Assembly (NCBI GenBank): GCA_934155185.1
Contig: CAKPGT010000003.1
Span: 30,970 to 94,969 of the forward strand
DNA: 64,000 nucleotides
Direction of reading: 5' to 3'
From: an uncultured Bacilli bacterium
Lineage (GTDB): Bacteria; Bacillota_I; Bacilli_A; RF39; UBA660
Of the stretch, positions 36,309 through 56,574 are shown one piece after another. A program made the position numbers and the translations under genes. A model generated the notes under the pieces. The model was not told the DNA's origin. It saw nothing but the letters and a program-made list of their open reading frames with translations, and made no database searches. The first letter of the stretch is position 1. Each line of letters begins with the position of its first letter.

Positions 36309-37199
36309 ATGAACTATTATAATGAAATAAAGGAAGAACTAGTAAATAATGAAGTATATAAAAAGGTAAAGGATTACTCTAAAAATAGAAGTGATTTAAA
36401 AACGTATTATAATGTTGGAAAGTTATTAAATGATGCTGGTAAAAAATATGGTGAGGGTATTATAAAAAAGTATTCTGATAAATTAAGCAGAGACCTAGGT
36501 AAAAAGTATAATGAAAGAACACTTAGAAGATTTAGACAATTTTATAATTTGTTTAGTGAACAAAAATGGACGACAGTGTCGACCAAATTGCTATGGAGTC
36601 ATTATGTTGAATTATTATCAATGGATGATATATGTGAAATTAATTATTACATAAAAATAGCGGAAGAAGAAAATTTATCTGTAAGAAAGTTAAGAGAGCG
36701 AATAAAAAATAATGAATATGAAAGACTAGATGACAAGACTAGGATTAAATTAAGTTCTAAGAAAAAAACGGATGCACATGATTTTATAAAAAATCCTATA
36801 CTTATAAGAAATAAATTTGATACTGATAAACTATCTGAAAAAATGTTAAAGCAAAGTGTGTTAGAAGACCTTTCACATTTTTTAAATGAATTAGGTAGTG
36901 GATATGCATTTATAAGAGAAGAATATCCAATAAAACTAGGTGATAGATATAATTATATAGATATACTTTTGTTTAATTATGTAAATAATAACTTTGCTGT
37001 AGTAGAGCTTAAAATAGGTGAAATAAAAAAAGAACATATAGGGCAGGTACAAACATATATGAATTATATTGATAAAAATTTAAAAACAATTAATCAAAAT
37101 GACACCATAGGAATTATTATCTGTAAAAAAGGTAATAGCTTTATAATGCAGTATGTTACAAACAAAAATATATACGAAAGAGAGTATGAACTAATATAA
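36309..37199 (+). CDS. DUF1016 / YhcG-like PD-(D/E)XK nuclease, paralogue 2
   Basis: TLRRFRQFY, LLWSHYVELL, ELGSGYAFIREEY, YIDILLFN and AVVELK motifs. Confidence 0.85.
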   Translation: MNYYNEIKEELVNNEVYKKVKDYSKNRSDLKTYYNVGKLLNDAGKKYGEGIIKKYSDKLSRDLGKKYNERTLRRFRQFYNLFSEQKWTTVSTKLLWSHYVELLSMDDICEINYYIKIAEEENLSVRKLRERIKNNEYERLDDKTRIKLSSKKKTDAHDFIKNPILIRNKFDTDKLSEKMLKQSVLEDLSHFLNELGSGYAFIREEYPIKLGDRYNYIDILLFNYVNNNFAVVELKIGEIKKEHIGQVQTYMNYIDKNLKTINQNDTIGIIICKKGNSFIMQYVTNKNIYEREYELI

Positions 37200-39825: not shown

Positions 39826-42366
39826 TTACTGATTTATGTTATTTAATTCACCTATAATACTAATTTTTCTAAAATTTATATGTAATAATATACTTAATAT
39901 AGTAATGATACAAAATGTAATTAAAAATGAGATTATATAGGTTAAAAAACTAATACTGAGTTTAAACGAGAATATATTTGTTTCACAAGAATTAATAATA
40001 AAGTTAGTTAAGATACTTCCAAATATAGTGCCTATTATAGAACAGATAAAAGTCATAAAGACGTATTCTTTTAACATATCTTTAATAATTTCTAAATCAT
40101 ATATACCTAAAGATTTTTTAATTACATATTCTTTTTTATTTTCATTTAATATGTACTTCATAGCACAAAACATAAAGATTATTACAATTATGATTAAAAC
40201 AAATATGACATTATTTAGAGGCTTTATATCATTTTTATACATATCTTTAACATCATCAGTTAATGTATAAGTTATTACGTTACTATCTTCTTTTACCTCA
40301 TTAATTAGAGAATTTAATTTCTTTTTATTATTATCTTTTACACATATTAATATTGTATTATATAAGACATCATTTTCTGTTAACTTTTTATATAAATTAT
40401 TTGATATATAAGCATAACTGTTTATGTAGTTTAAAGATATATCTGATACCTTTACTTTATATTCTTTTTCATCTATTGCTATTTTTATATTATCATTTTT
40501 CTTAACATTTAATGTATTAGCTGTCTTATTAGAAATAATTATTCCATTATCATTAAGTTTTAAGTTTTTGCCTTTAGTATTACTTAGCTTGATAAATGAG
40601 CTTAATTTTTTACCATCAGATGGGATAATTAAAGTTAAATCACCAGATGCATTTTTTTTCTTAACGTATGTGTTTGCTTCATTTACTTTACTTATTTTGA
40701 TAACATTTTTATTTTTTGCAAGTTTGCTTTCTAAAACGCCAAGATCTTCCTTGGTTATATTTGAATTTATGTGTAAAGATATATCATACTTATTTATTTT
40801 ATTATACTCATTATTAATTGTGTTACTTATAGAAGATTTAAAAGATAACATCGTTAGTATAAGTGAAAACATAAGACTTGATAAAATGGTTTTTGTTAAA
40901 AAATCTTTTTTATTAATTAATTTAAACTTTCTAAGTATGAAGTCTAACTTATTTATTTTCTTTTTTTCACTCATTAATTCAGATGGATTTTCTATAGAGT
41001 ATTTAATAAGTATTACAGATGTCATAACAAGTAGTAAAAATACTTCAAGTATGCAAAGTTTAACCGAATATTTAAATTGAGTACAGTTAATTATACTTGG
41101 TATTTCATAAGAACTTTTATAACACATAAATATTATTTTAGAAATAACCTTACTAAATAGAAATGAACCAAGGACGCAGCCCATAGAACCTGCTAAAAGG
41201 GTATAAAGTACATACCTGAATGAAACTTCTAATCTATTATATCCTGTAGCTCTTAAAGCGCCAATTTCTTTTCTTTCATTATTTATAAACTTATAGATTA
41301 TAAATAAACTAGATAAAGACATAGCTACAATAAAAAATATAGAAAATACTTTAGAGATACTACTTATTTTCTTAATTTCTAATTCATATTCATAAAAGCT
41401 TTGTGTTTCATTTCTTCTTAAAGTATAGCTTTTAGGTTCTGGTATACTTTTAAGATTATTTTTTGCATCATTTAATTCGTTTGATAGTTCTTTTATTGAT
41501 TCATTTAGTAACTCTTGAGGAACATCTGATGAGTAAAGTAAATTTAAACTACTTTCTAAATTTTCAATGCTACTTTTTAAATCACTTACTGTATAGTCAT
41601 ATTTACTTTTTGTGCTTTCACTTATTATATTAAGTATTTCAGTTTTATTATTATCAATATAATCATTATATTCTTTACTATATGTATCATAGTTTTTTTC
41701 ATTTTTAAATGTTACATATCCTTCAGTATAATAATTAACATTAAAATCATTTTCTTCAACATATATGTAATAATCTATTTTACTATTTTTAGAGTCTATT
41801 AAATTACCATTAGGTGAGTGGTAGCTGCTTTTAACTGTACCTACTATTTTTATTTTTTTAGCTCTTAAGTCATTACTATTATCAGGCATTAGAGTAATTA
41901 AATCACCAAGCTTTACATTATGTTCCTTAAGTAATTTTTCCTCAACAAGTCCTTCATTAATAGTAGAGGGATATCTACCACTTGTTAGTATAAGTCTATT
42001 TATATAATCATTATTTTTTTTACTTCTATCTTTATTTATAGAATTAACTTTTATAGTATAATCATTATCATTTATACTAGCATTTGTACTTAATGATTTA
42101 ATTAATGATATTCCTTTTACTTCTTTTAGTTCTTTTATTTTGATTAGATCATCGCTAGAAAATCCCATGGTGGATACTAGTTTTAAATCCATGAAATTTG
42201 TATCATCATAATATTTTTTAGAAGCACTTTTCATGTTAGATGAAATGGAGTTTAAACTTACACAAACGCTAGTTCCAAGTATTAATATAAAGATAAGACT
42301 TATAAAACTTTTTTTACTATTTTTAATCTTTATGAAAGCATTTTTTAAAATACTTTTTATTACCAT
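39826..42366 (-). CDS. ABC transporter permease with two FtsX-type modules
   Basis: 846 aa. N-terminal TM helix plus a large extracytoplasmic region and a 3-TM FtsX block, repeated twice. Overlaps the upstream ATPase gene by 7 bp. Confidence 0.85.
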   Translation of the reverse strand: MVIKSILKNAFIKIKNSKKSFISLIFILILGTSVCVSLNSISSNMKSASKKYYDDTNFMDLKLVSTMGFSSDDLIKIKELKEVKGISLIKSLSTNASINDNDYTIKVNSINKDRSKKNNDYINRLILTSGRYPSTINEGLVEEKLLKEHNVKLGDLITLMPDNSNDLRAKKIKIVGTVKSSYHSPNGNLIDSKNSKIDYYIYVEENDFNVNYYTEGYVTFKNEKNYDTYSKEYNDYIDNNKTEILNIISESTKSKYDYTVSDLKSSIENLESSLNLLYSSDVPQELLNESIKELSNELNDAKNNLKSIPEPKSYTLRRNETQSFYEYELEIKKISSISKVFSIFFIVAMSLSSLFIIYKFINNERKEIGALRATGYNRLEVSFRYVLYTLLAGSMGCVLGSFLFSKVISKIIFMCYKSSYEIPSIINCTQFKYSVKLCILEVFLLLVMTSVILIKYSIENPSELMSEKKKINKLDFILRKFKLINKKDFLTKTILSSLMFSLILTMLSFKSSISNTINNEYNKINKYDISLHINSNITKEDLGVLESKLAKNKNVIKISKVNEANTYVKKKNASGDLTLIIPSDGKKLSSFIKLSNTKGKNLKLNDNGIIISNKTANTLNVKKNDNIKIAIDEKEYKVKVSDISLNYINSYAYISNNLYKKLTENDVLYNTILICVKDNNKKKLNSLINEVKEDSNVITYTLTDDVKDMYKNDIKPLNNVIFVLIIIVIIFMFCAMKYILNENKKEYVIKKSLGIYDLEIIKDMLKEYVFMTFICSIIGTIFGSILTNFIINSCETNIFSFKLSISFLTYIISFLITFCIITILSILLHINFRKISIIGELNNINQ

Positions 42367-43061
42367 TTAAGATCACCTGCACTAACTGGCTTTTTATTTA
42401 TCTTAATACTTGAAATGCGTCCACCTTTAAGATTAATAACTTTATTAGCTATAGGTGAAATAAGATTGTTATTTGCTGTTATTATAATAACTTTTTTTTC
42501 TTTTTTAGCTAAATTTTTAAGTAATTTTATTATTTGCTTTGAACCCTTAATATCAAATTGCATTAAAGACTCATCACATAAAATAATACTAGGATTTTTA
42601 GATAATGCTCTAGCAATTGTTAAACGTCTTTTTTCTTCATTAGTTAAGTTTTCTGCTTTTATATATGCTTTATCTAATAAGCCTATTTTTTTAAGTAATA
42701 AATCAGTTTCTATGCTATTTCTACTTAAAACGGATGCTAGCTTTATATTTTCTATAACTGTTAAGCTAGACATTAAATTATATGATTGAAATACAAATCC
42801 AATATCATTTCGCCTATACTTGTTAAGATATCTTTCTTTTAAGCCACAGATGTTTTTTTCATCAACAATAATACTTCCACTATCAGGTTTATCAATTCCT
42901 GCAAGCAAGTTTAAAAGGGTAGTTTTGCCAGAACCTGATTGGCCTACTATGACTACTATTTCACCTTTTTTTATTTCAAAATTAATATTATCCAATGCTT
43001 TTATTTCTGATTCTTCATTCTCATAAGCTTTACAAATTTCTTTAAATTCTATATATGCCAT
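42360..43061 (-). CDS. ABC transporter ATP-binding protein with a degenerate signature motif
   Basis: Walker A GQSGSGKTTLLN and a Q-loop. The signature position reads LTNEEKRR instead of LSGGQ, and the Walker B region reads IILCDES. Confidence 0.85.
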   Translation of the reverse strand: MAYIEFKEICKAYENEESEIKALDNINFEIKKGEIVVIVGQSGSGKTTLLNLLAGIDKPDSGSIIVDEKNICGLKERYLNKYRRNDIGFVFQSYNLMSSLTVIENIKLASVLSRNSIETDLLLKKIGLLDKAYIKAENLTNEEKRRLTIARALSKNPSIILCDESLMQFDIKGSKQIIKLLKNLAKKEKKVIIITANNNLISPIANKVINLKGGRISSIKINKKPVSAGDLKW

Positions 43062-43239
43062 AGTAAGTGCCTCCTTTTTCAGTTATTATATTACATTTTG
43101 ATAATTTAAATGTCAACGTTTCTTAGATAAATATTTTAATTTTTAACTTGATATATTTACAGAGATTATAATATTGCTTTGATTTTTAATTAAAGTGATG
43201 TTATAATGTCGTTAGAAGATAAAAAATAGGGGTGAAAAG

Positions 43240-45216
43240 ATGAATGAGAATAATATAGGAAACACTGATGAACTTGGCTTTGAAAATGCTAATTTGGACC
43301 AAAACATAAATGAATCTGTTCAAGGAGATGTTAATATTTTAGGCGATTCTTCAATTAATACTAATTTAGACAGCACAGTAAATGATGCTAATACGCTTTC
43401 ATTAGAAAATCAGAAGTATAATGATACTTATAATGAACCACGAACTGAGTTACTCCCAGACGAAATAGGTAGAGTAAAAGATATTAGCGGTGATAAGGTA
43501 ATAGTAGGTATTACATCTGATTTAGCATATTCTAAAAATTTAGTTGATCATCATGTAGTATTTCAAGTAGAAAATGATCAGAAAATAGTTGGAACATTAA
43601 CTAGCATAAACAAGGAAACAGCAGAGATTCAACTAATTGGTGAGATAAAAGCAGATAGGTTTATAGCAGGAGTTTTAATTAAACCTCAAATTGGTAGTGT
43701 ATGTCAAATTGCAAGTGAAAACGAAACTAGTTTAATAGTAATTGATGGTAGTAATAATTCTACAAGTAAAGTCTTAGTAGGACAAATGCCTCTTTATAAT
43801 AATGCACCAGCGTATGTACCAACTAACACATTTTTCAGTAATCACTTTGCAATTTTTGGAAATACTGGTTCAGGTAAGTCTTGCGGTGTTGCAAGATTAC
43901 TTCAAAACGTATTTTTTAATACGAATCAAATTCCAAGAAATGCATGTATGTTTATATTTGATGCTTATGGTGAATACGAAAACGCATTATCTATTCAAAA
44001 TAGTAGTATATTATTTAAAAGGTATTCTACCAACGTAAGGACTAATTCAAATACGTTAATAAAGTTGCCACTTTGGCTTCTTGATATAGATGATTTTGCG
44101 TTATTACTTGATGTTGATGACCCATCGCAACTTCCAATAATAGAAAAGGCACTTAGACTAGTTACAGTATTTTCAGGACCAGAAGAAGAAACAAAGATAT
44201 ATAAAAATGATATAATTGCTAAAGCAATACTTGAGGTTTTATATTCAGGCGGTGCGGCATCACAAATACATGACCAAATATTTGCAATATTAACATCATT
44301 TAATACATCTGATCTAAACTTAGAATCTTTAATTGTACAACCGGGATATACGAGAACATTAAGACAATGCCTAATAATTGATAAAGAAGGTAAAATAGGT
44401 GAGATACAGTTAGTATCAGAATTTATAAAGAGATTTATTAATGATAATTTAAGACTAGAATTACCTGATGGAACTATACCATTTACACTTGAAAATCTAA
44501 AAGAAGCATTTGATTTTGCTTTAATATCTGAGGGTATACTAAAGAGTGATAAAATATATGATAAAGCTAATGTTTTAAAAGTAAGATTAGATTCTCTAAT
44601 AAAGAGTGAATACTCAGAATATTTTAAAGTTGATAAATATATTGACAAAGTTAATTTTATTAAGCAACTAATTACTGCGCCTAATGGTGGAAGAACACAA
44701 ATAATAAATATAAATATTAGTTACCTAGATGATAGATTAGCTAAAACTATATGTAAAATATATTCAAAATTATTGTTTGATTTTACATCTAAACTTAGAG
44801 TAAGGGGATCGTTTCCTATTCACTTAATATTAGAAGAAGCTCATCGTTATGTACAAAATGATGATGATGTAAAAATATTTGGATATAATATATTTGATAG
44901 AATTGCAAAAGAGGGAAGAAAGTATGGTGTTATACTTGGATTAATATCACAAAGACCATCTGAATTATCTGAAACTACAATGTCTCAGTGTTCTAATTTC
45001 TTAATTTTCAAAATGCAGCATCCTTATGATGTTAAGTTTATTAGGGAAATGGTGCCTTACATAACAGACGAAATAGTTGAAAAAATGAAAGGTTTGCAGC
45101 CAGGTACTTGCGTAGCCTTTGGCTCAGCATTTAAACTTCCAACTATTATAAAATTAGAAATGCCAAATCCGCAACCAATGAGTCAAAACGTTGACATATC
45201 AAGATTGTGGTATTAA
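43240..45216 (+). CDS. HerA/DUF87-type (HerA-FtsK superfamily) ATPase with Asn/Asp-rich N-terminal tail
   Basis: Barrel-like N-domain (GRVKDISGDKVIVG...), Walker A FGNTGSGKS, Walker B/sensor HLILEEAHRY and GLISQRPSELSETTMSQCSNFLIFKM. Confidence 0.8.
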   Translation: MNENNIGNTDELGFENANLDQNINESVQGDVNILGDSSINTNLDSTVNDANTLSLENQKYNDTYNEPRTELLPDEIGRVKDISGDKVIVGITSDLAYSKNLVDHHVVFQVENDQKIVGTLTSINKETAEIQLIGEIKADRFIAGVLIKPQIGSVCQIASENETSLIVIDGSNNSTSKVLVGQMPLYNNAPAYVPTNTFFSNHFAIFGNTGSGKSCGVARLLQNVFFNTNQIPRNACMFIFDAYGEYENALSIQNSSILFKRYSTNVRTNSNTLIKLPLWLLDIDDFALLLDVDDPSQLPIIEKALRLVTVFSGPEEETKIYKNDIIAKAILEVLYSGGAASQIHDQIFAILTSFNTSDLNLESLIVQPGYTRTLRQCLIIDKEGKIGEIQLVSEFIKRFINDNLRLELPDGTIPFTLENLKEAFDFALISEGILKSDKIYDKANVLKVRLDSLIKSEYSEYFKVDKYIDKVNFIKQLITAPNGGRTQIININISYLDDRLAKTICKIYSKLLFDFTSKLRVRGSFPIHLILEEAHRYVQNDDDVKIFGYNIFDRIAKEGRKYGVILGLISQRPSELSETTMSQCSNFLIFKMQHPYDVKFIREMVPYITDEIVEKMKGLQPGTCVAFGSAFKLPTIIKLEMPNPQPMSQNVDISRLWY

Positions 45217-45235: not shown

Positions 45236-45272
45236 AAAAACCTTTTCCATAGTTAATGTGGTTAGGTTTTTT
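45236..45272 (+). terminator. probable intrinsic terminator between the HerA-like gene and the T7SS block
   Basis: AAAAACCT / AGGTTTTT outer stem plus CCATA/TGTGG inner stem, with a T-rich tail. Confidence 0.5.
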
Positions 45273-45382
45273 ATTTACGTTTTTTATTTGCAATAATTGA
45301 CTAAAGCTTGTTAAAAATGCTATTATATAGATAGTAAAAGATAGTAGATGATTCTTTTACATAGTAATGAGGAGGCATATAC

Positions 45383-45637
45383 ATGTATTCTAATAAACTT
45401 TTAATATCTGTTGAAGTGCCGTCGATAGAGCAAAATTTTAACTTATTTATTCCAATAAATAAAAAACTTGGGACTATAAAGAAGTATATTACTGATAGTA
45501 TTTTTGAACTATCAGGAAAAATACTAGAACAAAAAAAATACTCTTTTTTCGACATTGATACTGGGGTTAAATATGGAAGTAATGTATATGTAAAAGACAG
45601 CGGAATAAAAAACGGGGCAAGAATAATTATGATTTAA
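45383..45637 (+). CDS. esaB: YukD/EsaB-like ubiquitin-fold T7SS protein
   Basis: 84 aa with a pattern of alternating beta-strand residues, ending NGARIIMI. SD GAGGAGG upstream. Immediately precedes the WXG100 genes. Confidence 0.7.
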   Translation: MYSNKLLISVEVPSIEQNFNLFIPINKKLGTIKKYITDSIFELSGKILEQKKYSFFDIDTGVKYGSNVYVKDSGIKNGARIIMI

Positions 45638-45650
45638 GGAGGTGAAAAAA

Positions 45651-45932
45651 ATGGCAGATTTAAAAATTAATTATGCTAATACAAGAAGTGCAGGTAACAC
45701 TGTTAAACAAAAATCATCAGAGTTTTCTGATTTATTAAAGGCAATTCATGAACAAAATGAAGAATTAAAATCTCACTGGCAAGGTGCTGATGCGGATAGC
45801 TATACAAAAAAAATATCAGAACAAGAACAAGTTATGAAAAACCTAAAATCAGCAATGGATGAAATGGGTGAGTATTTAGTTAAAGTTGCTAATGCTTATG
45901 AAGAAGCAATGGAAAGTAACAAAATAAATTAA
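45651..45932 (+). CDS. esxA: WXG100-family protein (EsxA-like)
   Basis: 93-aa helical hairpin with a central W-x-G (SHWQGADADSY). SD AGGAGGTGA precedes ATG 45651. Confidence 0.85.
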   Translation: MADLKINYANTRSAGNTVKQKSSEFSDLLKAIHEQNEELKSHWQGADADSYTKKISEQEQVMKNLKSAMDEMGEYLVKVANAYEEAMESNKIN

Positions 45933-45953
45933 TATTGATAAGGAGGATTACAT

Positions 45954-46247
45954 ATGGGAACAGAATTTTCTGGTTTATCATACGCGCAAATAAGAGGGAT
46001 AGCTGCAACTTTGAAGTCAAAAGCTACCTCTATGCAAGGAATACTAAATGAAGTTAAAACAGAGTTTGATAAAATAGGTGGAGATGACACTTGGAGTGGA
46101 ACATCTGCAGGAGCAGCAAAAGAACAATTTGATGCACTTTCAGCAAAATTTCCAGAATTTTATGAAGCAATAACTTCTTGCTCTCAGTATCTTGAGAGAG
46201 TAGTTCAAAGCTATGAAGCTGTTGATGCTAAAATTAAAGGAATATAG
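45954..46247 (+). CDS. WXG100-family protein (second paralogue)
   Basis: 97 aa with a central W-x-G (DDTWSGTSAGAA). SD AGGAGG upstream. Confidence 0.85.
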   Translation: MGTEFSGLSYAQIRGIAATLKSKATSMQGILNEVKTEFDKIGGDDTWSGTSAGAAKEQFDALSAKFPEFYEAITSCSQYLERVVQSYEAVDAKIKGI

Positions 46248-46334
46248 TTATTAGAGCACTAAAGCTCTTTGACAAAAAAGTGTTATTAAAATAGCATTTT
46301 TTTGTGAAACAGATTTAGAAAGGCAAGATGATAC

Positions 46335-46619
46335 ATGAAGATAAAGGCTTCAAGTGAACTGGTAAAAAGTGCAAGTTTAATTAATGATCGTTTTAGTGAA
46401 ATATATAAGAGTATTGATACGATTCAGAACTATATTGGGCAGACAAATAAGGTTTGGAAAGGAACAGACGCTGATTCTTTTACAAAGAAATATAATGAAG
46501 AAGTAATACCTAATTTAAGAAAATTTAAAAGTTCTATGGAAAAATATGTGACGTTTTTGTCAAAGGTTTATCCTGTTTATAAAGCACTGGACGAATATTA
46601 TGACAAACCCATAAATTGA
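46335..46619 (+). CDS. WXG100-like small helical protein (possible LXG-effector targeting factor)
   Basis: 94 aa with a central VWKGTDADSF. Confidence 0.6.
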   Translation: MKIKASSELVKSASLINDRFSEIYKSIDTIQNYIGQTNKVWKGTDADSFTKKYNEEVIPNLRKFKSSMEKYVTFLSKVYPVYKALDEYYDKPIN

Positions 46620-46633
46620 TTGGAGTGATTATT

Positions 46634-46921
46634 ATGTATGCAAATTATGATGGAATGAATGAGCTACGTGAACGTTTAGACTCTGAAATAGATAAGATGG
46701 TTAAAAATATGAAAGATGCTAAAGATTTAGTTTCAAAGCTTGATAATAATGATTACTGGGATGGGAATGGATTTAACAGTTATAATGAAAAATTTAATAA
46801 ACTAGCTATGAATTTTAATTCATTTTGTAATGATATCCAAAAGCTTAATAATAACATCAAAGTTGCAATTTCAAATTATCAGGAAATAGATAAAAAAGTT
46901 GAAGGAAGCATAGGTACATAA
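46634..46921 (+). CDS. WXG100-like small helical protein
   Basis: 95 aa from ATG 46634, after SD TGGAGTGA. Central YWDGNGFNSY. Confidence 0.6.
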   Translation: MYANYDGMNELRERLDSEIDKMVKNMKDAKDLVSKLDNNDYWDGNGFNSYNEKFNKLAMNFNSFCNDIQKLNNNIKVAISNYQEIDKKVEGSIGT

Positions 46922-46923
46922 TT

Positions 46924-47352
46924 ATGGCATATGAAAATATAGATGTTAATAAGTTGAAAACTGCACTAAGTACAATAAATAATATTAATAATTCAAAGAT
47001 AGACAACTTAGTACAAAAAATGGACTCGGAGCAGTGGCAAAGTCCTGTAAGAAGCAGACTTCAAACTGCACTTTCAAACATATCAAAGCAATATGCAAGT
47101 TTAAAAAAAGATATAGATACTTATAAAGAAATTGCAAATCATATTGAAAAATATAATCGTGCTAAAAGCGATTATGATAGATTAAATGACGATGTGAATT
47201 ATTACAATAATAAATTAAATAGTTTAGATGAAAATTCTAGCTTTTATGAATATAATAAAAGTTATTTTAAGTCGAAGCTAGATAATAATGTTTTGGCTAG
47301 AAATAATGCTAGAGCTAGTATGAATGAAATAGAAAAAAAGATTAATTTGTGA
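46924..47352 (+). CDS. small helical protein with a degenerate WxG-like turn
   Basis: 142 aa with EQWQSPVRSR at the turn position. Coiled-coil-like composition. Tightly packed with its neighbours. Confidence 0.45.
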   Translation: MAYENIDVNKLKTALSTINNINNSKIDNLVQKMDSEQWQSPVRSRLQTALSNISKQYASLKKDIDTYKEIANHIEKYNRAKSDYDRLNDDVNYYNNKLNSLDENSSFYEYNKSYFKSKLDNNVLARNNARASMNEIEKKINL

Positions 47353-47362
47353 GGAGAAAAAG

Positions 47363-47671
47363 ATGAATAATAATGTTAATTTAGGAAAATATTTGCCAAT
47401 AGGAACTGTAGTTCTTTTGAGAGGTGGAAAAAAAAGACTTATGATTACGGGCTTTTGTTCTTTAGCTGAGAATGATAGTTCAAAATTATACGATTATAGT
47501 GGTTGTTTATATCCAGAAGGAGTAATTGAAAGTAAAAGCATGGCTTTGTTTAATCATAATCAAATAGAAAAAATATTCTATTTAGGATACTCTGATTTAG
47601 AAGAAAAAAACTTTAAGAAGGAATTAGTTACAGAGGTTGCAAAACTAGTTCAAGATCAAGAAAATAACTAA
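47363..47671 (+). CDS. DUF4176-family protein (T7SSb effector chaperone-like)
   Basis: LPIGTVVLLRGGKKRLMITGF ... YDYSGCLYPEG ... FNHNQIEKIFYLGY matches the DUF4176 pattern. Confidence 0.75.
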   Translation: MNNNVNLGKYLPIGTVVLLRGGKKRLMITGFCSLAENDSSKLYDYSGCLYPEGVIESKSMALFNHNQIEKIFYLGYSDLEEKNFKKELVTEVAKLVQDQENN

Positions 47672-47704
47672 GAATATAAATAATAACAAGGAGGTGAAAT
47701 TTTT

Positions 47705-50700
47705 ATGGGACTGTATAATTTAACTAGAATAGAGGGATGGTACGAAGATTTCACCGACTTAAAAAATCGATTTAACAATGACTATTATCAAGATTTTAAG
47801 AGTAGTTATTTAAGAAAGTGCCCTAATCAATTAGTGTCAAAAATGTATTTAAATTTGCAAGAAAAGTATTTTAAAATACGTGAATTGTATAAAAAAGTTG
47901 ATACAGTTTGGAGTGAATATATAGTTGATTTAGAAAACACAGATAATAGATTAGCTGGGCAAAGTGGAAGTGTTAGTGCGTCAACTGTATCGTCATTATT
48001 GTCTAAAATGCCACAACTAAATGATACTCAGTATAGCTTATCTAATTCTGGAGGCCAAAGCAAAAACGCAGTACTTGAAATTGGGGAAAAAATTCTTTCA
48101 ACGGGTGCTGTTGTTACAACTACCGTGTATAGTGGTTTATTTAAATTAAGAGAAAAATTTCAAGATGGTGCATTATGGCTTGTAGCAACTGTTACTGCTC
48201 CGGTTGTTTCATTGTTTAATAAAGAAGCTGGGGAAAAATATAAAGAAGCAATGATGGATGCAATTGCTGTAGATAGGGTTGCAGAGGCAAATAAATATTT
48301 TTATGAAAATACTAAAGTTGGAAAATACATTAATGAAAAATCTTACTTAAAGTATGATAGTGAATTTGCAAAGAAAATGCAAAATTATTCAGAAAAAGGC
48401 TTTGAAATTGCAGCAGCAACTGCATTAACCGTAGCAACTGGTGGACTTGCTGCACCTGTATCTGCTCTACTGGTTGTGGGTACTGGCTTTGCTATTGGAG
48501 CAGGTGAAAAAGCAGAGGAAAATTATCAGCAAGAAGATAGAAGTTTTTATGGGGACGCTGGTGAAATTGCATTTGCAGGTTTAATCAAAGGAATTGAATT
48601 CTATGGCACTGGAAAGACGGGACAGGGAATTATTACTGCAGCCAAAGCAGTTGCAAGTTCTGGAGGTATAAAATCTATATCTACGGTTGCAAAACAATTA
48701 TTTACTAAAAGTGGAAATAAAAAAATCACTATGAAATCACTATTTAAAAAAGCGTCAGAAACGTTAAAAACAGCTTTATCAGATGTGGATACACATATGG
48801 ATTCGCTTAGCGCAGCAGCGGATAATATAACTTATAGTAAAGAAGAGGGTATAAAGGTTAATTGGAAAGGTTTTGCAAAAAAAACTGTTAAATATTTCAT
48901 TGCCAATTGTTGTTCAGCATTTGTTAGCAATCTATATGCACCACCAAAGACAAAAGCAGATAATGGTATAGAGAAATTTAAAGGTACAAAAAGTACATCA
49001 GCTGACGATTTAGAATCATTAAAAAAAGAATATAATGAGTTACTAGCCAAATCAAAAGAAAAATGGTTTATAGATGCAAAAGATGCTATGGATAATGGCT
49101 ATGCTTGGAAGTTAGATGATATTAAATCAGCAGATGATATTGCAAAAAGAATGAATGAAATAGAAAAGGCCCTTGGCATAGATAGCCCAAAAGTTAATGT
49201 AAAAGGAATAGAATCAGGAAGTACTCATAAATCTGATTTAGAACAACTAAAAAAAGAATATAATGAGTTATTAGCTAAGTCAAAAGAAAATTGGTTTATA
49301 GATGCAAAGAATGCTATGGATAATGGCTATGCTTGGAAATTAGATGATATTAAATCAGCAGATGACATCTCAAAAAGAATGGATGAAATAGAAAGAATTT
49401 TGTATAGTGATTCAAAAAATTTGACTAGTTCAGCTTACCCTGAAGCATTTAGTAGAAAATCATTAAGTAATATGACAAATTATGAGGTACATAAGTCATT
49501 AAGTGACATGGATATTGTTATTAAAAATATAGAGTCAAAATATCCGGGTGAGGGAGTACGTCGCTTAGAAGAATATTTAAAAACTGGTAATATAAATATG
49601 ATTACATCTCTTGGTGGTTCTAGAAACTATGTAGCTCAATTTGAACCTGATTTTATTGAATATTATCTTAAAAAAAGATATAATATTGATGTAAAAGTTA
49701 GTTCATCATTCTATGATTTAAATCAAACAGTACGTAGTGGTACATTAAAAAGTAGTAGTAATGAAGAATTATATAGTTTCTTTTCAAATAACGGAAGTTC
49801 ATTAAATGAAACATATGGTGCTGATCAAGGTGGAATAGATAAGCTATGTGATTATTATTTAAATGGAACAAGGTATTCTTGCTCTGAAGCCAAGGAGATA
49901 GCGAATTCGTATAAAGAGAGAGGATTGCCTTTACCAAAATTTAAAAAAGAGGCTGCAGTAGAAGAATACTTTACATTAAAAAATAAGTTAGTTTCAAAGG
50001 GATTAACTAGTGCTCAAGCCTCTGTTATATTATCAAGTTTTGATGATGTTGGCGCGTGTACTTATGCTGGAAAAGCTAATTCAATCTTTTTTAAGTTTTC
50101 AGATAATCCAGAACTATTTGAGAAAAAATTTGGCTTTCCAATGTATAAAATAGATAGTAATGGGCGTAAGGTTCTTAATTCAAATGAACTTTTATTAGAT
50201 ATGTATATGCATATAAATGATATATCGAATGGTGGAATGTTATTTACGAAAGTTAACGATTCATATGTTTTAAATTGCAGTGATAAAATTGATGTATTTG
50301 GCAGAAAAATGCTTGATACCGAGCATCAGGTTTATCTTTCTAATTTTGGCGGTTCAAATGACTATGCTTTAAATAATTATTTAAAATCTAAAAATTTAAA
50401 GTGGGATTCTTATAATTTGATTTCAAATCCTTCTGGTAAAAAATTAAACACGTCGGAATTAGTTGACTACGTTAATGCAATCTCTTCCAGTATTGAAGAT
50501 GGAAAGGCAGTACAAATGAACATCTTCTCTTCTGACAATAATATTACCATGCATTCAACAAATCCGGGTTCCTATAGTAGTAAATCAACAGATTCATGGA
50601 TAAAAGAAATAGTAAATGAAAATGGCAAAATTGAAAAGAAACACAGTGGTCATGCAGTAATGATTACCGGAATAAAAAATGATGGTTTTACAGTTAGTTC

Positions 50701-50797
50701 TTGGGGTCAGGAATATAAGATTTTGTATAATGATTTAATAAATGGAGGAGAATTTAACATAACAATAGATAATGTTATTGATCCTGTAGTTAGTTAG
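47705..50797 (+). CDS. large putative T7SS substrate/toxin with C-terminal Cys-His (papain-fold-like) domain
   Basis: Occupies the position of an LXG-type effector. Helical N-terminus, Gly/Ala-rich hydrophobic core and 2 x 76-aa repeat. C-terminal GACTYAG ... HSGHAVMITG ... SSWGQEY. Confidence 0.55.
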   Translation: MGLYNLTRIEGWYEDFTDLKNRFNNDYYQDFKSSYLRKCPNQLVSKMYLNLQEKYFKIRELYKKVDTVWSEYIVDLENTDNRLAGQSGSVSASTVSSLLSKMPQLNDTQYSLSNSGGQSKNAVLEIGEKILSTGAVVTTTVYSGLFKLREKFQDGALWLVATVTAPVVSLFNKEAGEKYKEAMMDAIAVDRVAEANKYFYENTKVGKYINEKSYLKYDSEFAKKMQNYSEKGFEIAAATALTVATGGLAAPVSALLVVGTGFAIGAGEKAEENYQQEDRSFYGDAGEIAFAGLIKGIEFYGTGKTGQGIITAAKAVASSGGIKSISTVAKQLFTKSGNKKITMKSLFKKASETLKTALSDVDTHMDSLSAAADNITYSKEEGIKVNWKGFAKKTVKYFIANCCSAFVSNLYAPPKTKADNGIEKFKGTKSTSADDLESLKKEYNELLAKSKEKWFIDAKDAMDNGYAWKLDDIKSADDIAKRMNEIEKALGIDSPKVNVKGIESGSTHKSDLEQLKKEYNELLAKSKENWFIDAKNAMDNGYAWKLDDIKSADDISKRMDEIERILYSDSKNLTSSAYPEAFSRKSLSNMTNYEVHKSLSDMDIVIKNIESKYPGEGVRRLEEYLKTGNINMITSLGGSRNYVAQFEPDFIEYYLKKRYNIDVKVSSSFYDLNQTVRSGTLKSSSNEELYSFFSNNGSSLNETYGADQGGIDKLCDYYLNGTRYSCSEAKEIANSYKERGLPLPKFKKEAAVEEYFTLKNKLVSKGLTSAQASVILSSFDDVGACTYAGKANSIFFKFSDNPELFEKKFGFPMYKIDSNGRKVLNSNELLLDMYMHINDISNGGMLFTKVNDSYVLNCSDKIDVFGRKMLDTEHQVYLSNFGGSNDYALNNYLKSKNLKWDSYNLISNPSGKKLNTSELVDYVNAISSSIEDGKAVQMNIFSSDNNITMHSTNPGSYSSKSTDSWIKEIVNENGKIEKKHSGHAVMITGIKNDGFTVSSWGQEYKILYNDLINGGEFNITIDNVIDPVVS
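49010..49402 (+). repeat. in-frame tandem duplication (228-bp period, about 1.7 copies) inside the effector gene
   Basis: LESLKKEYNELLAKSKEKWFIDAKDAMDNGYAWKLDDIKSADDIAKRMNEIEKAL versus LEQLKKEYNELLAKSKENWFIDAKNAMDNGYAWKLDDIKSADDISKRMDEIERIL. Unit starts are at 49010 and 49238. Confidence 0.9.
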
Positions 50798-50805
50798 GAG
50801 GTATT

Positions 50806-51363
50806 ATGAGAGAAATTGATAATTATAAGTATATGTTTTTTAAAGAAGTGTATAACACTATAAATCTTAAAAGTGTGGAACAGAAAATGTTAGGTGATAA
50901 TATAAAGCCACTTGAAGTAATAAAAGATGATAAATATGATGTAATTTCAAACTACTTTTTCTTGCTAAATGTTTTTAACATTGAGGCCTTGTCTAAGGAA
51001 CAGTTACAAGATTTTTATACGTACTTTTCTAAAGATATTAATTCTTTAAATGAACAAGAACTCCAAAAAACAAGAGAATTTATAAATGAAACTTATTCTA
51101 CGGTATTGTTTCCTAAGACTGATAGTAAATACGTATATTATGGTCCAATTAATGATGACTATTTATGCCCAAGAGATGCTATTGTAATAGGATTATACTA
51201 TGATGCTTTTGGGGAATATGGCGATTTTGAACTAGAAAATAAACTAGCAGATATTATTAATTATATTCAGTTCTCATTGGATAAAAAGAATTATAGTAAA
51301 ATTGCTGTTATACCATTTAATCAAATTACATTAGAAAATAGAATTAGTAGTTTAAATAAATAG
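50806..51363 (+). CDS. hypothetical protein; candidate cognate immunity protein
   Basis: 185 aa with no TM segment. Starts 9 nt after the effector stop and has its own SD (AGGAGG). Confidence 0.4.
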   Translation: MREIDNYKYMFFKEVYNTINLKSVEQKMLGDNIKPLEVIKDDKYDVISNYFFLLNVFNIEALSKEQLQDFYTYFSKDINSLNEQELQKTREFINETYSTVLFPKTDSKYVYYGPINDDYLCPRDAIVIGLYYDAFGEYGDFELENKLADIINYIQFSLDKKNYSKIAVIPFNQITLENRISSLNK

Positions 51364-51383
51364 CATTATAAGGAGTGAATAAA

Positions 51384-54300
51384 ATGAGGGTTTCATTAAT
51401 AAAAAAAGATAGAATAAGGCATGTTAACATACCAGATGTACCATCTGGTAACTTTTGGGTTACTGACTATGACGAAAACGGTAAAGAAGTTAATTTACTA
51501 AACATAAAGTCAGAAAATGGCAAGTGGAAATTAATTAGTAATTCAGAGTTTTACTGCTTACTAAACAATAACTATGTTGATAGTTTAGATTTAAAAAATT
51601 ATTGTTTTTATTCTATAAGAAAAGCTTCAAGTGATGAAACAATGCTAATATATTCATCTAGTTCATGCGATAGTAAAAAGGTTGAATACCTAATTAATCA
51701 AAATAATAATCCTTTAATTTCAATTGGTAGTGCTGTTAACTGTAATATTTCATTTCCATTCTTAGATGAGGTTACAGCTAATCTTATGTTTGAAAGAGGA
51801 AAGTATGTCTTACAAGTAATGTCTCCTAAAGTTGGGGTATATATAAATAATTTAAGAGTATATGATAAAAAGGTACTAGAATATGGCGATATATTATTTT
51901 TAAACGGATTAAAAATAGTATTTATGAAATGTGAGGGCAATGATAGATTAATAATATATTATTTCGGGAATAATTTAATTGTAAATGGACTTGCTAGTTC
52001 TACATATGATGATTACGAAGAACCTTTTGAAGAAGCTAAAGAAGATTTGGATATTAAATGGTACAAAGATGAAGACTTTTTTCACAAAACTCCAAGATTT
52101 GTATCTGAAATAAAAGAAAAAGAAATTAAAATAGATGTTCCTCCATCAAAGGAAGAGCAAAATGATATGCCCGTGATATTAACAATAGGGCCAATGCTTA
52201 CTATGAGTATGTCGTCTATGGTTATGGCATTTACATCAATAAGTAATGCAAGAAGTAATGGTGGTTCGTTAGCTTCTGCGATTCCATCTATTGTAATGTC
52301 TTTAGCTATGGTTGCATCTGTATTGCTATGGCCATCTTTAACAAGAAAATTTGAAGATAAAAGAAGACAAAAAAAGGAAAAAGAAAGAATAGATAAGTAT
52401 TCCAAATATATAGATTCTAGAAGAAAGATGATACTAGATGAGCTTGAAAGTCAAACTAAGTCTTTAAAAGGTAATTATCCAAGTCTTTTAGAATGTAATA
52501 GAATAATTTTAAACAAGGAGCCTGTTTTATGGCAAAGAAAAATTGAAGATGAAGATTTCTTAAAAGTTAGTTTAGGGTATGGAAGCTACGATATGAAGCT
52601 TAAAATTTCTTATCCAGAAGAACAGTTTTCAATGATAGAAGATGAGCTTAAGGATTTGGCTGATAAGTTAAGCAGGGAGCCAAAAGTTTTGCAAAATGTT
52701 CCGATTCCTTATTCTTTTTTAGAAAATAATATCTCTGCTATTGTAGGACAATATAATGATAGAAGTGAGTACTTAAAAAAGATATTATTTCAAATAATTA
52801 CGTTTCATAGCTATGTTGATTTGAAAATAGTTATTTTAACAGATAATGATAAAAAAAGTACATGGGAGAATATAAAGAATTTACCATATTGCTTTACGGA
52901 TGATAGAAGTCTTAGATTATTTGCTTCAAAAAATGAAGAGTATAGCATTGTATGTTCTTATCTTGAAAAAATATTTAGTTTAAGAAAGGAAGCTAGTAAA
53001 ACTGATGTTAATCCTCATATATACGATAAAATATATTTAATTATTACTGATTCATTTAAATCAGTAAGGAATCAAGACTTTATAGATAATCTTTTAAAGG
53101 AAAAGAATAATTATGGATTTAGTTTTATTGTTTCAAATGGTAAAATATCAACTCTTCCAGAACAGTGCAAGACATTTATAAATGTCGGATTAAATGGTGG
53201 ATATTTGTCTAAAAATATTGTAAATTCACAGAATCAAAATTTTATAACAGATTTAAATAGTGGAATAAACTACAATGAATGTTACAAAATACTTTGTAAC
53301 ATACCAATTGAAACAAATGATTCATCATCTTCTAAAATACCAGATAAAGTTGGATTTTTGGAGATGTATGATGTTGGTAAAGTAGAACAACTAAATTCAT
53401 CTAACAGATGGGAAAAGAGTAATCCAATGAATACTTTATCAGCACCTGTTGGTTATGGAAAAAACAGTGAAATCCAGTATATTGACTTACATGAAAAGTA
53501 TCATGGTCCGCATGGTTTAATAGCAGGTATGACAGGTTCTGGTAAATCAGAATTTATAATTACTTATATACTATCTTTAGCAGTTAATTATAGTCCACTT
53601 GAAGTTCAATTTATATTAATAGACTATAAAGGCGGTGGACTTGCTGGAGCATTTGAAAACTCTAACTCCGGAAAGAAATTACCTCACTTAGTAGGTACTA
53701 TTACTAACTTAGATGCGAGTGAAATTAAAAGAAGTATTTCTAGTATAGAAAGTGAGCTTAAAAGAAGGCAGCGTTTGTTTAATATAGCTAGGGATAAGAC
53801 AGGCGAAAGTACAGTTGATATATATAAATATCAGCGATTTTATAGAGAAGGTAGGGTTGATGAACCGGTATCTCATTTATTTATAATATCTGATGAGTTC
53901 GCTGAGTTAAAAAATCAACAACCTGAATTCATGGATCAGCTTATATCTACGGCACGTATAGGACGTTCATTAGGTGTGCATTTAATTTTAGCAACACAAA
54001 AGCCAAGTGGTGTAGTAGACCCTCAAATATGGTCAAATACAAGGTTTAGAGTTTGCTTAAGAGTTCAAGATAAGAGTGATTCTAATGAAGTAATTAAATG
54101 CCCAGATGCTGCATTTTTAAAACAAACAGGTAGATTTTACTTTCAAGTTGGTTATAATGAAGTATTTACTTTAGGACAAGCTGCTTGGGCAGGAGAAAAA
54201 TATGTACCAAAAGAAAAAACCAAAAAACCAGTAGATACGACAATAAAGTTTATTAATAATGTTGGTTATGTAATAAAAAAGGTAGCAACTAGAAAAATTC

Positions 54301-56039
54301 AAACTAATCAAGATGAAAAGAAATATGGGGAAGAATTATTAAATGTTGTAAATTATTTATCTGATATTGCTACAGAATTAAAAATAAAGGCAAAGCCATT
54401 GTGGCTTGATAAGATTCCAAGTTTTATTAAGATAAGAGATTTAATTAAAAAGTATGATTATAAATCTAATGTTCCAATAATTGATATACCTGTAGGTGAA
54501 TTTGATATACCTCAGCAGCAAAGACAAAGTATACTTACAGTTCCTATAAGTAATGGTGGAAACGTTTTACTATATGGAACTACCGGTTCTGGTAAAGAAA
54601 ACTTTATTATGACACTTATATATTCTTCAATGCTATTATATACACCAGAAGAGATTAATTTTTATATAATGGATTTTGGTGCAGAGGTACTTAAAGTATT
54701 TAAAGACTCACATTATGTCGGTGATATAGTTCAAATTGATGAAGAGGAAAAAATTAAGAATCTATATAAGTTAATAAATAATATGATAGATGAAAGAAAG
54801 GAGATGCTTTCATCTTATGGTGGAAGTTTCTTAAGTTACTTAAAAAATGGTGGTAAAAAGTTGCCAAGTATTGTAGTAGTTCTTAATAATTATGAAGCTT
54901 ATTATGATACTTACGAAGAACTTGATGATACGTTTAATATACTAACTAGAGAATGTGCTAAGTATGGTATATATTTCATAATTACTTTAAATACTCCTAA
55001 TGGAATGCGCTTTAAATTACGTCAGAACTTTTCACAAATATACTGTTTGCAACAAAATAATGAGGATGATTACATAAGTATTCTTGGTAATACTGGAAAA
55101 AGTTACCCATCTAAATTATTTGGTAGAGGTATAATTAAAAGAGATAATGTATATGAATTTCAAACAGCTTCTATAGATGTTCAAGAGAAATTAAATGAAA
55201 GTATACAACTTGAAATATCAAACTCAAATAATAAAACTAATTTTGTTGCTAAAAAGATACCTATACTTCCTAAGGTTGTAGATTATGAATATATTAAAGA
55301 TAGTATAGACTATAATGATGAAGAAGTTATAATTGGTGTTGAAAAACAAAGCTTAGAAGTTTGCAAGTATAATTTTAGAAGAGATTTAATAAACGTAATT
55401 TCTGCTAATGATAGTGATATGATGTCTGATTTTGTTAATTCTTTCATAAATCAAATTAAAATAAATAAGAAATTCCAGACTATGGTTATTGATGCTTCAG
55501 AATTAAGAATTGATGATGATACTAAAGAGAAAGTTGCTTATGAGGAAAATAATTACAATGAGGTATTTGAAAGAATATTAAAGTATGAGAATGATTGCTA
55601 TGATGTATATAGAAATAATAATTATAATAATTTAATATTCCGTAATCAAAAACCACTTATTGTAGTTATAAACGGTATAGATAGTTTTGTTTCTAAATTA
55701 TCTGATGAAAATAAACTAAACGTATCTGACTTCTTTACAAAAGCAAAAGATTTAAACATAATTAATTTTGTTTTAATAGATAGTGTAAGCGGTATAAAGA
55801 AAGTTGAGTACGAATCATGGTTTAAGGAAGGGTTTAATCCTAATGATGGTATATTTATTGGTGATGGTATAAATGACCAATATACAATGAAAGTATCTGT
55901 TAGAACACAAGAAATAAAGGAAACTATAAGTGATGATTTTTGCTTTGTACTATTAAGGGGTAAACCAGTACTTGTTAAGTACATTAGTAGTTTTAATCCT
56001 ATTTTAGATGATATGATAGAGATTCCTAGTGAAAAGTAA
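51384..56039 (+). CDS. essC: T7SS FtsK/SpoIIIE-family ATPase EssC/YukBA
   Basis: FHA-like N-terminal modules and two TM helices (MPVILTIGPMLTMSM.., IPSIVMSLAMVASVLLW). ATPase modules have P-loops GMTGSGKSEF and GTTGSGKENF, with Walker B IISDEF. The third module lacks a P-loop. Start is ATG 51384, after SD AAGGAG. Confidence 0.9.
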   Translation: MRVSLIKKDRIRHVNIPDVPSGNFWVTDYDENGKEVNLLNIKSENGKWKLISNSEFYCLLNNNYVDSLDLKNYCFYSIRKASSDETMLIYSSSSCDSKKVEYLINQNNNPLISIGSAVNCNISFPFLDEVTANLMFERGKYVLQVMSPKVGVYINNLRVYDKKVLEYGDILFLNGLKIVFMKCEGNDRLIIYYFGNNLIVNGLASSTYDDYEEPFEEAKEDLDIKWYKDEDFFHKTPRFVSEIKEKEIKIDVPPSKEEQNDMPVILTIGPMLTMSMSSMVMAFTSISNARSNGGSLASAIPSIVMSLAMVASVLLWPSLTRKFEDKRRQKKEKERIDKYSKYIDSRRKMILDELESQTKSLKGNYPSLLECNRIILNKEPVLWQRKIEDEDFLKVSLGYGSYDMKLKISYPEEQFSMIEDELKDLADKLSREPKVLQNVPIPYSFLENNISAIVGQYNDRSEYLKKILFQIITFHSYVDLKIVILTDNDKKSTWENIKNLPYCFTDDRSLRLFASKNEEYSIVCSYLEKIFSLRKEASKTDVNPHIYDKIYLIITDSFKSVRNQDFIDNLLKEKNNYGFSFIVSNGKISTLPEQCKTFINVGLNGGYLSKNIVNSQNQNFITDLNSGINYNECYKILCNIPIETNDSSSSKIPDKVGFLEMYDVGKVEQLNSSNRWEKSNPMNTLSAPVGYGKNSEIQYIDLHEKYHGPHGLIAGMTGSGKSEFIITYILSLAVNYSPLEVQFILIDYKGGGLAGAFENSNSGKKLPHLVGTITNLDASEIKRSISSIESELKRRQRLFNIARDKTGESTVDIYKYQRFYREGRVDEPVSHLFIISDEFAELKNQQPEFMDQLISTARIGRSLGVHLILATQKPSGVVDPQIWSNTRFRVCLRVQDKSDSNEVIKCPDAAFLKQTGRFYFQVGYNEVFTLGQAAWAGEKYVPKEKTKKPVDTTIKFINNVGYVIKKVATRKIQTNQDEKKYGEELLNVVNYLSDIATELKIKAKPLWLDKIPSFIKIRDLIKKYDYKSNVPIIDIPVGEFDIPQQQRQSILTVPISNGGNVLLYGTTGSGKENFIMTLIYSSMLLYTPEEINFYIMDFGAEVLKVFKDSHYVGDIVQIDEEEKIKNLYKLINNMIDERKEMLSSYGGSFLSYLKNGGKKLPSIVVVLNNYEAYYDTYEELDDTFNILTRECAKYGIYFIITLNTPNGMRFKLRQNFSQIYCLQQNNEDDYISILGNTGKSYPSKLFGRGIIKRDNVYEFQTASIDVQEKLNESIQLEISNSNNKTNFVAKKIPILPKVVDYEYIKDSIDYNDEEVIIGVEKQSLEVCKYNFRRDLINVISANDSDMMSDFVNSFINQIKINKKFQTMVIDASELRIDDDTKEKVAYEENNYNEVFERILKYENDCYDVYRNNNYNNLIFRNQKPLIVVINGIDSFVSKLSDENKLNVSDFFTKAKDLNIINFVLIDSVSGIKKVEYESWFKEGFNPNDGIFIGDGINDQYTMKVSVRTQEIKETISDDFCFVLLRGKPVLVKYISSFNPILDDMIEIPSEK

Positions 56040-56115: not shown

Positions 56116-56574
56116 ATGAAAGAGCAAACTAAAAAGAAAATACTTTTAATAATATTATGCACGTTAACACTTTTGGTTTTATATGTAGCTATAAGACTAA
56201 ACTCAAATAGAAAGCATAGTTTATTGTTAAATTCGGATATTAAAGGATACTTAAGTGAGATAAAGTATGAAGAAATAGAATCTCATGTAAAGGAAAGGCC
56301 TAATGTAATCATATATGTTTCAAATAGCAGTCAAAATGAGTCAATTAAGTTTGAAAGAATGTTTAAAGATATAATTAAAAAATATAATTTAGAAAATGAA
56401 GTAATCTACATAAATATAAATGAAACAACAATTATTGATCCGATATATCAAAATGCCCCAGAACTTGTATTTTATAAAGATGGTACAATTAGTGATATTA
56501 TTGATTGCAGTACATTAAAAAGCAAGAAAAGTATTATAAATGAGTTAAAAGAAAGAAGTGTTATAGATGATTAA
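56116..56574 (+). CDS. N-terminally anchored membrane protein, possibly a thioredoxin-like fold without CxxC
   Basis: One TM helix (ILLIILCTLTLLVLYVAI) followed by an alpha/beta-like ~110 aa. The stop overlaps the trmL start. Confidence 0.4.
   Translation: MKEQTKKKILLIILCTLTLLVLYVAIRLNSNRKHSLLLNSDIKGYLSEIKYEEIESHVKERPNVIIYVSNSSQNESIKFERMFKDIIKKYNLENEVIYININETTIIDPIYQNAPELVFYKDGTISDIIDCSTLKSKKSIINELKERSVIDD

Follow-up and report, generated by a model that had tools for sequence, protein, structure and literature searches.

The window analysed here (the whole stretch of 64,000 nucleotides, positions 30,970 to 94,969 of contig CAKPGT010000003.1, from an uncultured Bacilli bacterium of the order RF39) carries, immediately upstream of a type VII secretion system (T7SS) block, a gene for a HerA-type ATPase. 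This HerA is a near-universal, often duplicated and vertically inherited core gene of RF39. Known HerA ATPases belong to two-part machines, in which the other half is NurA for DNA repair and SIR2 or DUF4297 for defence against phages. The gut bacteria of RF39, which have minimal genomes, have as a whole order retained a core HerA without a partner, often in two copies; its closest relatives are defence proteins. The chances are about even that it is a stand-alone ring ATPase, exapted from a SIR2-HerA system and inherited vertically in RF39, with a cellular job in chromosome maintenance or division.

The HerA protein

The identification of the 658-amino-acid (aa) open reading frame (ORF) as a HerA-type ATPase, made in a previous sequence-only reading, is borne out by profile matches, by solved structures and by a structural model. 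The product matches the Pfam family DUF87, "Helicase HerA central domain" (9e-23, 81.9 bits against a cut-off of 23.2), and the PADLOC HerA model PDLC04102 along residues 130-658 (7e-111). Its sequence matches in the PDB are HerA chains exclusively, the best being 9c1m (5.9e-43, covering the C-terminal half), with 4d2i at 1.3e-25. The AlphaFold2 (AF2) model, a monomer built from 68 homologues (mean predicted local distance difference test, pLDDT, 79.7; predicted template modelling score, pTM, 0.75), is aligned by Foldseek along ~600-660 columns, barrel included, with solved HerA structures, the best being 8yhx (E = 1.5e-33); 9x1m is matched at E = 4.4e-25. The parts of the gene recognised from these data are the following.

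43240..45216, plus strand: herA-type ATPase gene (P0001), 658 aa, from profile, structure and ORF evidence
43462..43710, plus strand: N-terminal beta-barrel (HAS-barrel-like), residues 75-157, from AF2 strands and the full-length Foldseek alignment
43855..43881, plus strand: Walker A motif FGNTGSGKS, residues 206-214, with G207, G210, G212, K213 and S214 invariant
44086..44673, plus strand: helical insertion in the RecA core, residues 283-478, from AF2 secondary structure
44824..44850, plus strand: Walker B motif LILEEAHRY, residues 529-537, with E532, E533, H535, R536 and Y537 invariant
44911..44967, plus strand: EGRKYG (residues 558-563, putative arginine-finger region) through QRPSEL (residues 571-576, putative sensor region), in invariant columns

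The motifs FGNTGSGKS, LILEEAHRY, QRPSEL and SQCSNFLIFKM (the last at residues 582-592) had been pointed out before; all four are present, and their columns vary little or not at all among 76 homologues. GxxGSGKS (207-214), EEAHRY (532-537), EGRKYG (558-563) and QRPS (571-574) are invariant across the homologues. The arginine-finger and sensor roles given to EGRKYG and QRPSEL are likely ones by analogy with the HerA/FtsK family. All elements of the HerA plan are there: the beta-barrel, the RecA core and its helical insert, and an ATP site whose conserved motifs are intact. The HerA of Paenibacillus also consists of a beta-barrel, a RecA core and an alpha-helical insert (PMC11472057), and both the domain plan and the catalytic motifs of RF39 HerA are the same as in the SIR2-HerA systems of known structure (Nezha; 8wiv and 8wld from Paenibacillus sp. 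453MF, 8j4u and 8sub from E. coli). The fold and motifs are also common to the HerA of HerA-NurA systems (4d2i from Sulfolobus, 9x1m from Thermococcus, and Deinococcus), although in sequence the protein is closer to defence-type HerAs. The anti-phage HerA-DUF4297 systems (9c1m, 8xau, 8ziq) provide both the best PDB sequence match (9c1m) and top structural matches.

FtsK/SpoIIIE and EssC are P-loop ring ATPases of the same FtsK-HerA superfamily, but the HerA of the window lacks a membrane domain and a gamma domain, and its score for Pfam FtsK_SpoIIIE (20.5, over 30 residues round the P-loop only) is below the cut-off of 24. The genome has its own FtsK (a 733-aa open frame at G000:C3:~4379), as well as an EssC.

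Distribution in RF39

The best 120 database matches of the protein are all at least 73% identical to it, and one of them is named Candidatus Aphodocola excrementigallinarum. Ca. Aphodocola corresponds to CAG-594 of order RF39 in GTDB (PMC8035907), and the genus of the window is probably CAG-594/Ca. Aphodocola. In this genus, HerA is present in 25 of 25 genomes, in single copy in each. In an even sample of the order, it is present in 239 of the 251 genomes and in 105 of the 110 genera, with two copies in many of them. Among 266 genomes from the rest of class Bacilli, there are just one orthologue (in genome G030 of family f7, 48% identity) and three weak matches (26-36%). A pattern scan of the GTDB species representatives confirmed at least 577 HerA loci; the 80 that were listed all come from metagenome-assembled genomes, labelled Bacilli, Tenericutes, Mycoplasmatota or (wrongly) Muribaculaceae. 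The distribution is that of a lineage-specific core gene, not that of a mobile defence gene. In genomes under such strong reduction, this gene would be retained only if it earned its place.

Absence of the known partners

The partners of HerA were searched for in the window and in the whole genome (G000, 1.21 Mb in 41 contigs, 91.7% complete). The sequence-only reading had reported no partner nuclease, SIR2 or DUF4297 beside the gene, and both the flanks and the whole-genome profile searches agree. A Pfam scan of the window finds none of the three flanking herA. NurA (PF09376) has no match in the 91.7%-complete genome, and the same search matched in seven control genomes; SIR2_2 (PF13289) has none in the genome either, and no SIR2 is found in 61 related loci. 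For DUF4297/Cap4 (PF14130), the nuclease partner of HerA-DUF4297, the genome gives no match, which is a weak negative, as the control genomes gave none either. In HerA-NurA systems, NurA usually shares an operon with Mre11 and Rad50, whereas there is no Mre11/Rad50 operon round herA in the window, and NurA, Mre11 and Rad50-type genes are not near any of the homologues in the 61 loci. Similarly, SIR2-HerA has an adjacent, usually overlapping, gene for a SIR2-family NADase, whereas RF39 HerA has none adjacent and none found in the genome.

The possibility that HerA substitutes for an absent AddAB or RecBCD in end resection is ruled out, AddA (741 bits, over the cut-off) and RecA being present in the genome; the availability of AddA for this function is a further difference from the HerA-NurA systems, even if the chromosome-processing role proposed below is similar to theirs. 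RecJ was not found in the genome at its 91.7% completeness. The idea that HerA fills in for an absent motor of pili or competence is likewise ruled out for this genome, where two pilus/competence ATPases of T2SSE type are encoded along with T2SSF platform proteins.

Ancestry and the link with defence

Searched against 1.84 billion representatives, the protein matches 239 clusters at E <= 1e-30. Next after the RF39-type sequences come P0134 (38% identity) and its relatives from Veillonella and Anaerovibrio, followed by P0148-like proteins of Bacteroidota (~33%). All the nearest outside relatives, P0134 and P0407 (38% and ~35%) as well as P0277, P0300 and P0331 (~33%), have SIR2_2 immediately upstream. 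In every relative context looked up, SIR2_2 overlaps or abuts herA, often in the surroundings of an integrative and conjugative element (ICE) or of restriction-modification genes. The nearest sequence relatives outside the lineage are SIR2-linked HerAs, those of Negativicutes being 38% identical and those of Bacteroidota ~33%. In a quick midpoint-rooted maximum-likelihood tree, where the contexts of several rows are unchecked, the solitary HerAs make up one group (Shimodaira-Hasegawa-like approximate likelihood ratio test, SH-aLRT, 100), with SIR2-linked HerAs as nearest neighbours. From its sequence relationships, the solitary clade probably derived from the HerA half of a SIR2-HerA pair, with SIR2 lost and HerA exapted. 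If this history is true, it is a clear case of exaptation, in which genomes undergoing strong reduction have turned a motor of the immune system to a cellular function.

One may ask whether HerA is still an anti-phage sensor or motor, acting by itself or together with an effector that went unrecognised at another place in the genome. Its best profile match is the defence-associated PADLOC model (PDLC04102, 7e-111), the closest solved structures are anti-phage HerA complexes, and its closest kin outside the lineage belong to SIR2-HerA pairs of defence islands or ICEs. However, SIR2_2, Cap4/DUF4297 and NurA were not found in the genome, and the two NCBIfam equivalogs for anti-phage HerA (NF042943 and NF042944) give 151.2 and 165.7 bits, far under their cut-offs of 800 and 850. 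Defence genes are normally patchy and island-borne. SIR2-HerA follows this pattern, whereas RF39 HerA is in ~95% of the genomes of the order, in stable housekeeping positions and often duplicated, and no conserved neighbour is available that might serve as effector. A present anti-phage function is decidedly unlikely on these data. The sequence-only reading had also proposed a single-gene defence or maintenance module. The gene is indeed single and partner-less, and maintenance fits; a classical defence module is unlikely given the vertical inheritance, the housekeeping neighbours and the lack of an effector, and the link with defence survives only as ancestry.

Genomic contexts of the homologues

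Neighbours were clustered across 61 HerA loci and mapped onto the HerA tree. There is no universal neighbour among them. Instead, contexts are clade-specific and track the tree: yqeG-yqeH precede herA in 9 of the 61 loci, herA precedes sepF and divIVA (and sometimes ileS) in 13, with gaps of 30-83 nucleotides (nt) and without a strong hairpin, and a gene for a membrane protein (cluster c22) precedes herA in the sister clade of the window's genus. In 5 loci (L034, L041, L057, L059, L074), ylxM and ffh of the signal recognition particle (SRP) operon are separated by a second HerA paralogue, the ftsY-ylxM-ffh cluster being otherwise conserved around it. FtsK genes are found within ~9 kb of herA in 5 of the 61 loci, and several RF39 genera have herA beside ftsK and sepF-divIVA. 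In these contexts, herA is built into core operons; as for a link to division, they give no more than a hint. A literature search returned nothing relevant on a stand-alone HerA in RF39 or on HerA linked to sepF or divIVA.

The most compact arrangement is that of genus g73 (L070, G117:C3, 9036..13094, minus strand), an ftsK-herA-sepF-divIVA block. There, ftsK (760 aa) stops 15 nt before herA, in the same frame and with a single TAA between them; the "1358-aa open frame" of this genus is not a fusion, as ftsK and herA are parted by the TAA stop and four codons. Two other clues to a partner were followed and rejected. A conserved small downstream partner is ruled out, since the gene after herA changes by clade (sepF, membrane-anchored proteins and others). 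Fusions are equally uninformative, as low-complexity S/N/T-rich tails without a Pfam domain are all that the long representatives (829-943 aa) have in addition. In the orthologue from another family (G030; locus L020, G030:C3:33000-52000), herA is wedged between a gene for a dacF-like carboxypeptidase and a DUF308 gene, upstream of spoIIAA-spoIIAB-sigF; this 0.9-Mb genome carries spoIIAA, spoIIAB, sigF and spoVAD.

The contexts also bear on a role of HerA as the motor of some other transport of DNA or protein, for example in DNA uptake, in the remnant of a conjugation system, or in pilus assembly. In one relative (L044), pilin-like genes adjoin the homologue, and NCBIfam gives weak matches of the protein to CedD, a DNA import ATPase (1.5e-16), and to a VirB4-like family. 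These scores are far under the cut-offs, though (60 against 600 for CedD, 25 against 325 for the VirB4-like family), the pilin neighbourhood occurs in 1 of the 61 loci only, and relaxase, coupling-protein and type IV secretion system genes are absent from the vicinity of herA and from the homologue loci surveyed. With two T2SSE ATPases and T2SSF, the genome is not missing a motor. A transport function seems very improbable, and the gene is not the remnant of a conjugative element in the relatives either.

A putative cellular role

The scenario of a stand-alone HerA with a cellular job may be put as follows. An ancestral SIR2-HerA would have lost SIR2, and HerA would have been taken over for a constitutive function in the cell. 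A HerA hexamer would use ATP to translocate, or to remodel, double-stranded DNA through its central pore, and this DNA motor would most likely act during chromosome maintenance or division.

Several points weigh against this scenario. About 5% of the genomes of the order gave no HerA match, and herA may be dispensable. The genome already has FtsK, AddA and RecA, which leaves no obvious gap for a HerA motor. The direction of evolution, that is, the loss of SIR2, rests on the midpoint-rooted quick tree. The division-gene contexts may have been inherited from one ancestral arrangement, and thus represent few independent events. Finally, in the SIR2-HerA of Paenibacillus, HerA alone has low ATPase activity and no helicase activity (PMC11472057). 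Because HerA alone is nearly inactive in that system, a partner-less descendant would need another activator or partner, a changed regulation, or an intrinsic activity.

A more specific version holds that the defence-derived HerA has turned into a housekeeping chromosome motor of RF39 that is coupled to cell division and works without NurA or SIR2. It is suggested by the ftsK-herA-sepF-divIVA blocks, by the second copy in the SRP operon and by disordered tails ending in short motifs. Taken as a whole, this version is on the unlikely side. If true, it would make RF39 the first bacterial lineage with HerA as a core cellular ATPase. HerA has long been proposed as the archaeal counterpart of FtsK, and a housekeeping motor in RF39 would echo that proposal.

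The N-terminal extension

An Asn/Asp-rich stretch of ~75 aa had been noted earlier as a tail of the protein. The stretch is real and of this length, but it is not a C-terminal tail, being the N-terminal 75 residues of the ORF. These contain 21% N, 11% D and 11% E, with a net charge of -14, and pLDDT in the AF2 model is below 50 at residues 1-68 (block means 25-37). The extension has two parts.

43240..43287, plus strand: conserved tip motif, residues 1-16, M-x-E/D-N-N-h-x-N-h-D-E-L, from the alignment of 83 distinct N-termini of genus-level homologues
43288..43464, plus strand: variable acidic Asn/Asp/Glu/Ser-rich linker, residues 17-75, predicted to be disordered from composition, charge and pLDDT

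In the 83 aligned N-termini, the tip reads M-x-(E/D)-N-N-(F/I/Y)-x-N-h-D-E-L and is followed by a linker that differs in length and sequence within the genus, and then by a conserved LLPNEIGRV that opens the barrel. The extension is confined to the window's genus, as matches from other genera begin at about residue 76. What is new here is this genus-specific extension, in which a variable acidic linker carries a conserved tip motif; its sequence looks like that of a short docking motif attached by a flexible tether. In known HerA complexes, the barrel face is the docking face for NurA or SIR2. The HerA of the window thus differs from that of SIR2-HerA in bearing a disordered extension on what would be the SIR2 docking face. 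A hexamer of this genus would have six acidic disordered arms with the conserved tip motif projecting from its barrel face, where they might recruit, gate or regulate a further partner.

Some representatives of the second paralogue, which occurs in other genera (P0126, P0127 and P0137), have Ser/Asn/Thr-rich disordered C-terminal tails of 250-360 aa, without a Pfam domain. Two of the three finish in alike short peptides (..LVNFIENMN and ..LSSFIDNM), and one repeats an EHNPALDFG motif three times.

The herA unit and the adjacent T7SS cassette

The gene starts with an ATG preceded by a ribosome-binding site, GGGGTGA, and the following signals lie around it.

43179..43207, plus strand: promoter-like site of herA, TTGATT-17-TATAAT with a TG-extended -10, 10/12 matches in a consensus scan
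45236..45272, plus strand: terminator-like hairpin followed by a U run, from folding
45297..45326: promoter-like site with a TG-extended -10, upstream of the yukD-like gene, from the consensus scan

The probable terminator that had been placed between herA and yukD is supported by folding: the 74-nt stretch around it folds at -20.3 kcal/mol (z = -6.0 relative to shuffles). A simple terminator scan found no terminator between herA and the yukD-like gene, having missed this hairpin because its stem is AT-rich. The promoter-like site of herA is a consensus match only, and such sites are not more numerous in the region than expected from shuffled sequence. With its own promoter-like site, and because the terminator-like hairpin and a second promoter-like site precede the yukD-like gene, herA looks monocistronic. 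What follows downstream is listed here.

45383..56039, plus strand: T7SS cassette (yukD-like gene, WXG100 genes, DUF4176, a 1030-aa ORF and essC), outside the HerA unit, from Pfam
56116..56574, plus strand: gene for a DUF6568 protein, found directly after herA in species without the T7SS
56567..57097, plus strand: gene for a SpoU/TrmL-type methylase, after the DUF6568 gene

HerA and EssC have very different distributions. In the order sample, where HerA is found in 239 of 251 genomes, EssC is found in 124, and in 60 of the 110 genera, so that it is missing from half of the HerA-positive genomes. In the genomes of the order where both have coordinates, they are nearly always on separate contigs or tens of kb apart. 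The surroundings (~20 kb) of each of the 61 HerA genes outside the genus were queried with the T7SS proteins of the window. No conserved linkage with T7SS genes emerged from this survey of the homologues, 60 of the 61 loci having none nearby. The only exception is L067, in genome G050, where essC and a yukD-like gene stand just upstream of herA; the remaining weak EssC matches in these loci are FtsK.

Within the window's genus, EssC is present in 18 of the 25 genomes, all of which have HerA. Among the 15 EssC-positive species with both genes on one contig, the T7SS is directly downstream of herA in 14, the exception being G016, where it is 33 kb away. Two types of EssC (~70% and ~39% identical to that of the window) occupy the same site after herA in different species, the order of the T7SS genes differs, and some species have a tandem pair of essC. 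In three species (G004, G002 and G220), there is a clean empty site: the orthologues of 56116..56574 and 56567..57097 follow herA after ~90-210 bp, with syntenic outer flanks. In G003 and G005, ~1.7 kb of other DNA takes the place of the T7SS. Thus, herA is constant, and the 10.7-kb T7SS block (45383..56039) beside it is a cassette subject to exchange or loss, for which the site downstream of herA is a hotspot. In the window, herA adjoins the T7SS only because this is the place where, in one genus, the cassette is gained and lost.

An accessory ATPase recruited to the secretion locus, as had been suggested, is rejected as the role of HerA on the distribution, on the survey of the 61 loci and on the empty sites, and with it goes the tempting reading of a new T7SS ATPase. 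Homologues without a constant T7SS linkage are what the sequence-only reading had itself named as counting against this role. One could still imagine that, in this genus, HerA has become an accessory ATPase of the adjacent T7SS, with the N-terminal motif as tether. The adjacency persists in 14 of the 15 species despite the two EssC types and the differing gene orders, the stem of the genus clade is long (0.76) and the extension was acquired in this clade, and the arrangement in G050, which belongs to another genus, is a second case of proximity. However, the 7 species of the genus without an EssC match keep an intact herA, and in 6 of them the match extends into the N-terminal extension. The T7SS is 33 kb off in G016, herA is separated from the T7SS genes by the hairpin and by a separate promoter-like site, and two chance adjacencies in ~60 genera are roughly what is expected for small 1-Mb genomes. 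Such a genus-specific accessory function is extremely improbable.

Some components of the T7SS block are poorly defined. The 1030-aa ORF (47705..50797) has no Pfam match, and the 84-aa "yukD" (45383..45637) has no match in Pfam or NCBIfam and is assigned by size and position only. None of the scanned ORFs of the block was recognised as a component of EssB or EsaA type.

Upstream flank

On the other side, herA is flanked by a divergent ATP-binding cassette (ABC) transporter and by the gene for pyruvate formate-lyase (PFL), the T7SS block being the downstream flank.

39826..43061, minus strand: divergent ABC transporter (FtsX-type permease and ATPase), upstream neighbour of herA, from Pfam

This transporter varies in the genus: at E <= 1e-6 and with a match of at least half the query length, it has no match in G006, and the permease has none in G005 and G016. 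Elsewhere in the genus, it is just 31-44% identical, the adjoining PFL being 83-91% identical. Between the PFL activase and PFL lies a gene for a YhcG-type PDDEXK nuclease (DUF1016; 36309..37199, plus strand). This gene is split in L001 and was not seen in several relatives, and it is probably a small accessory insertion.

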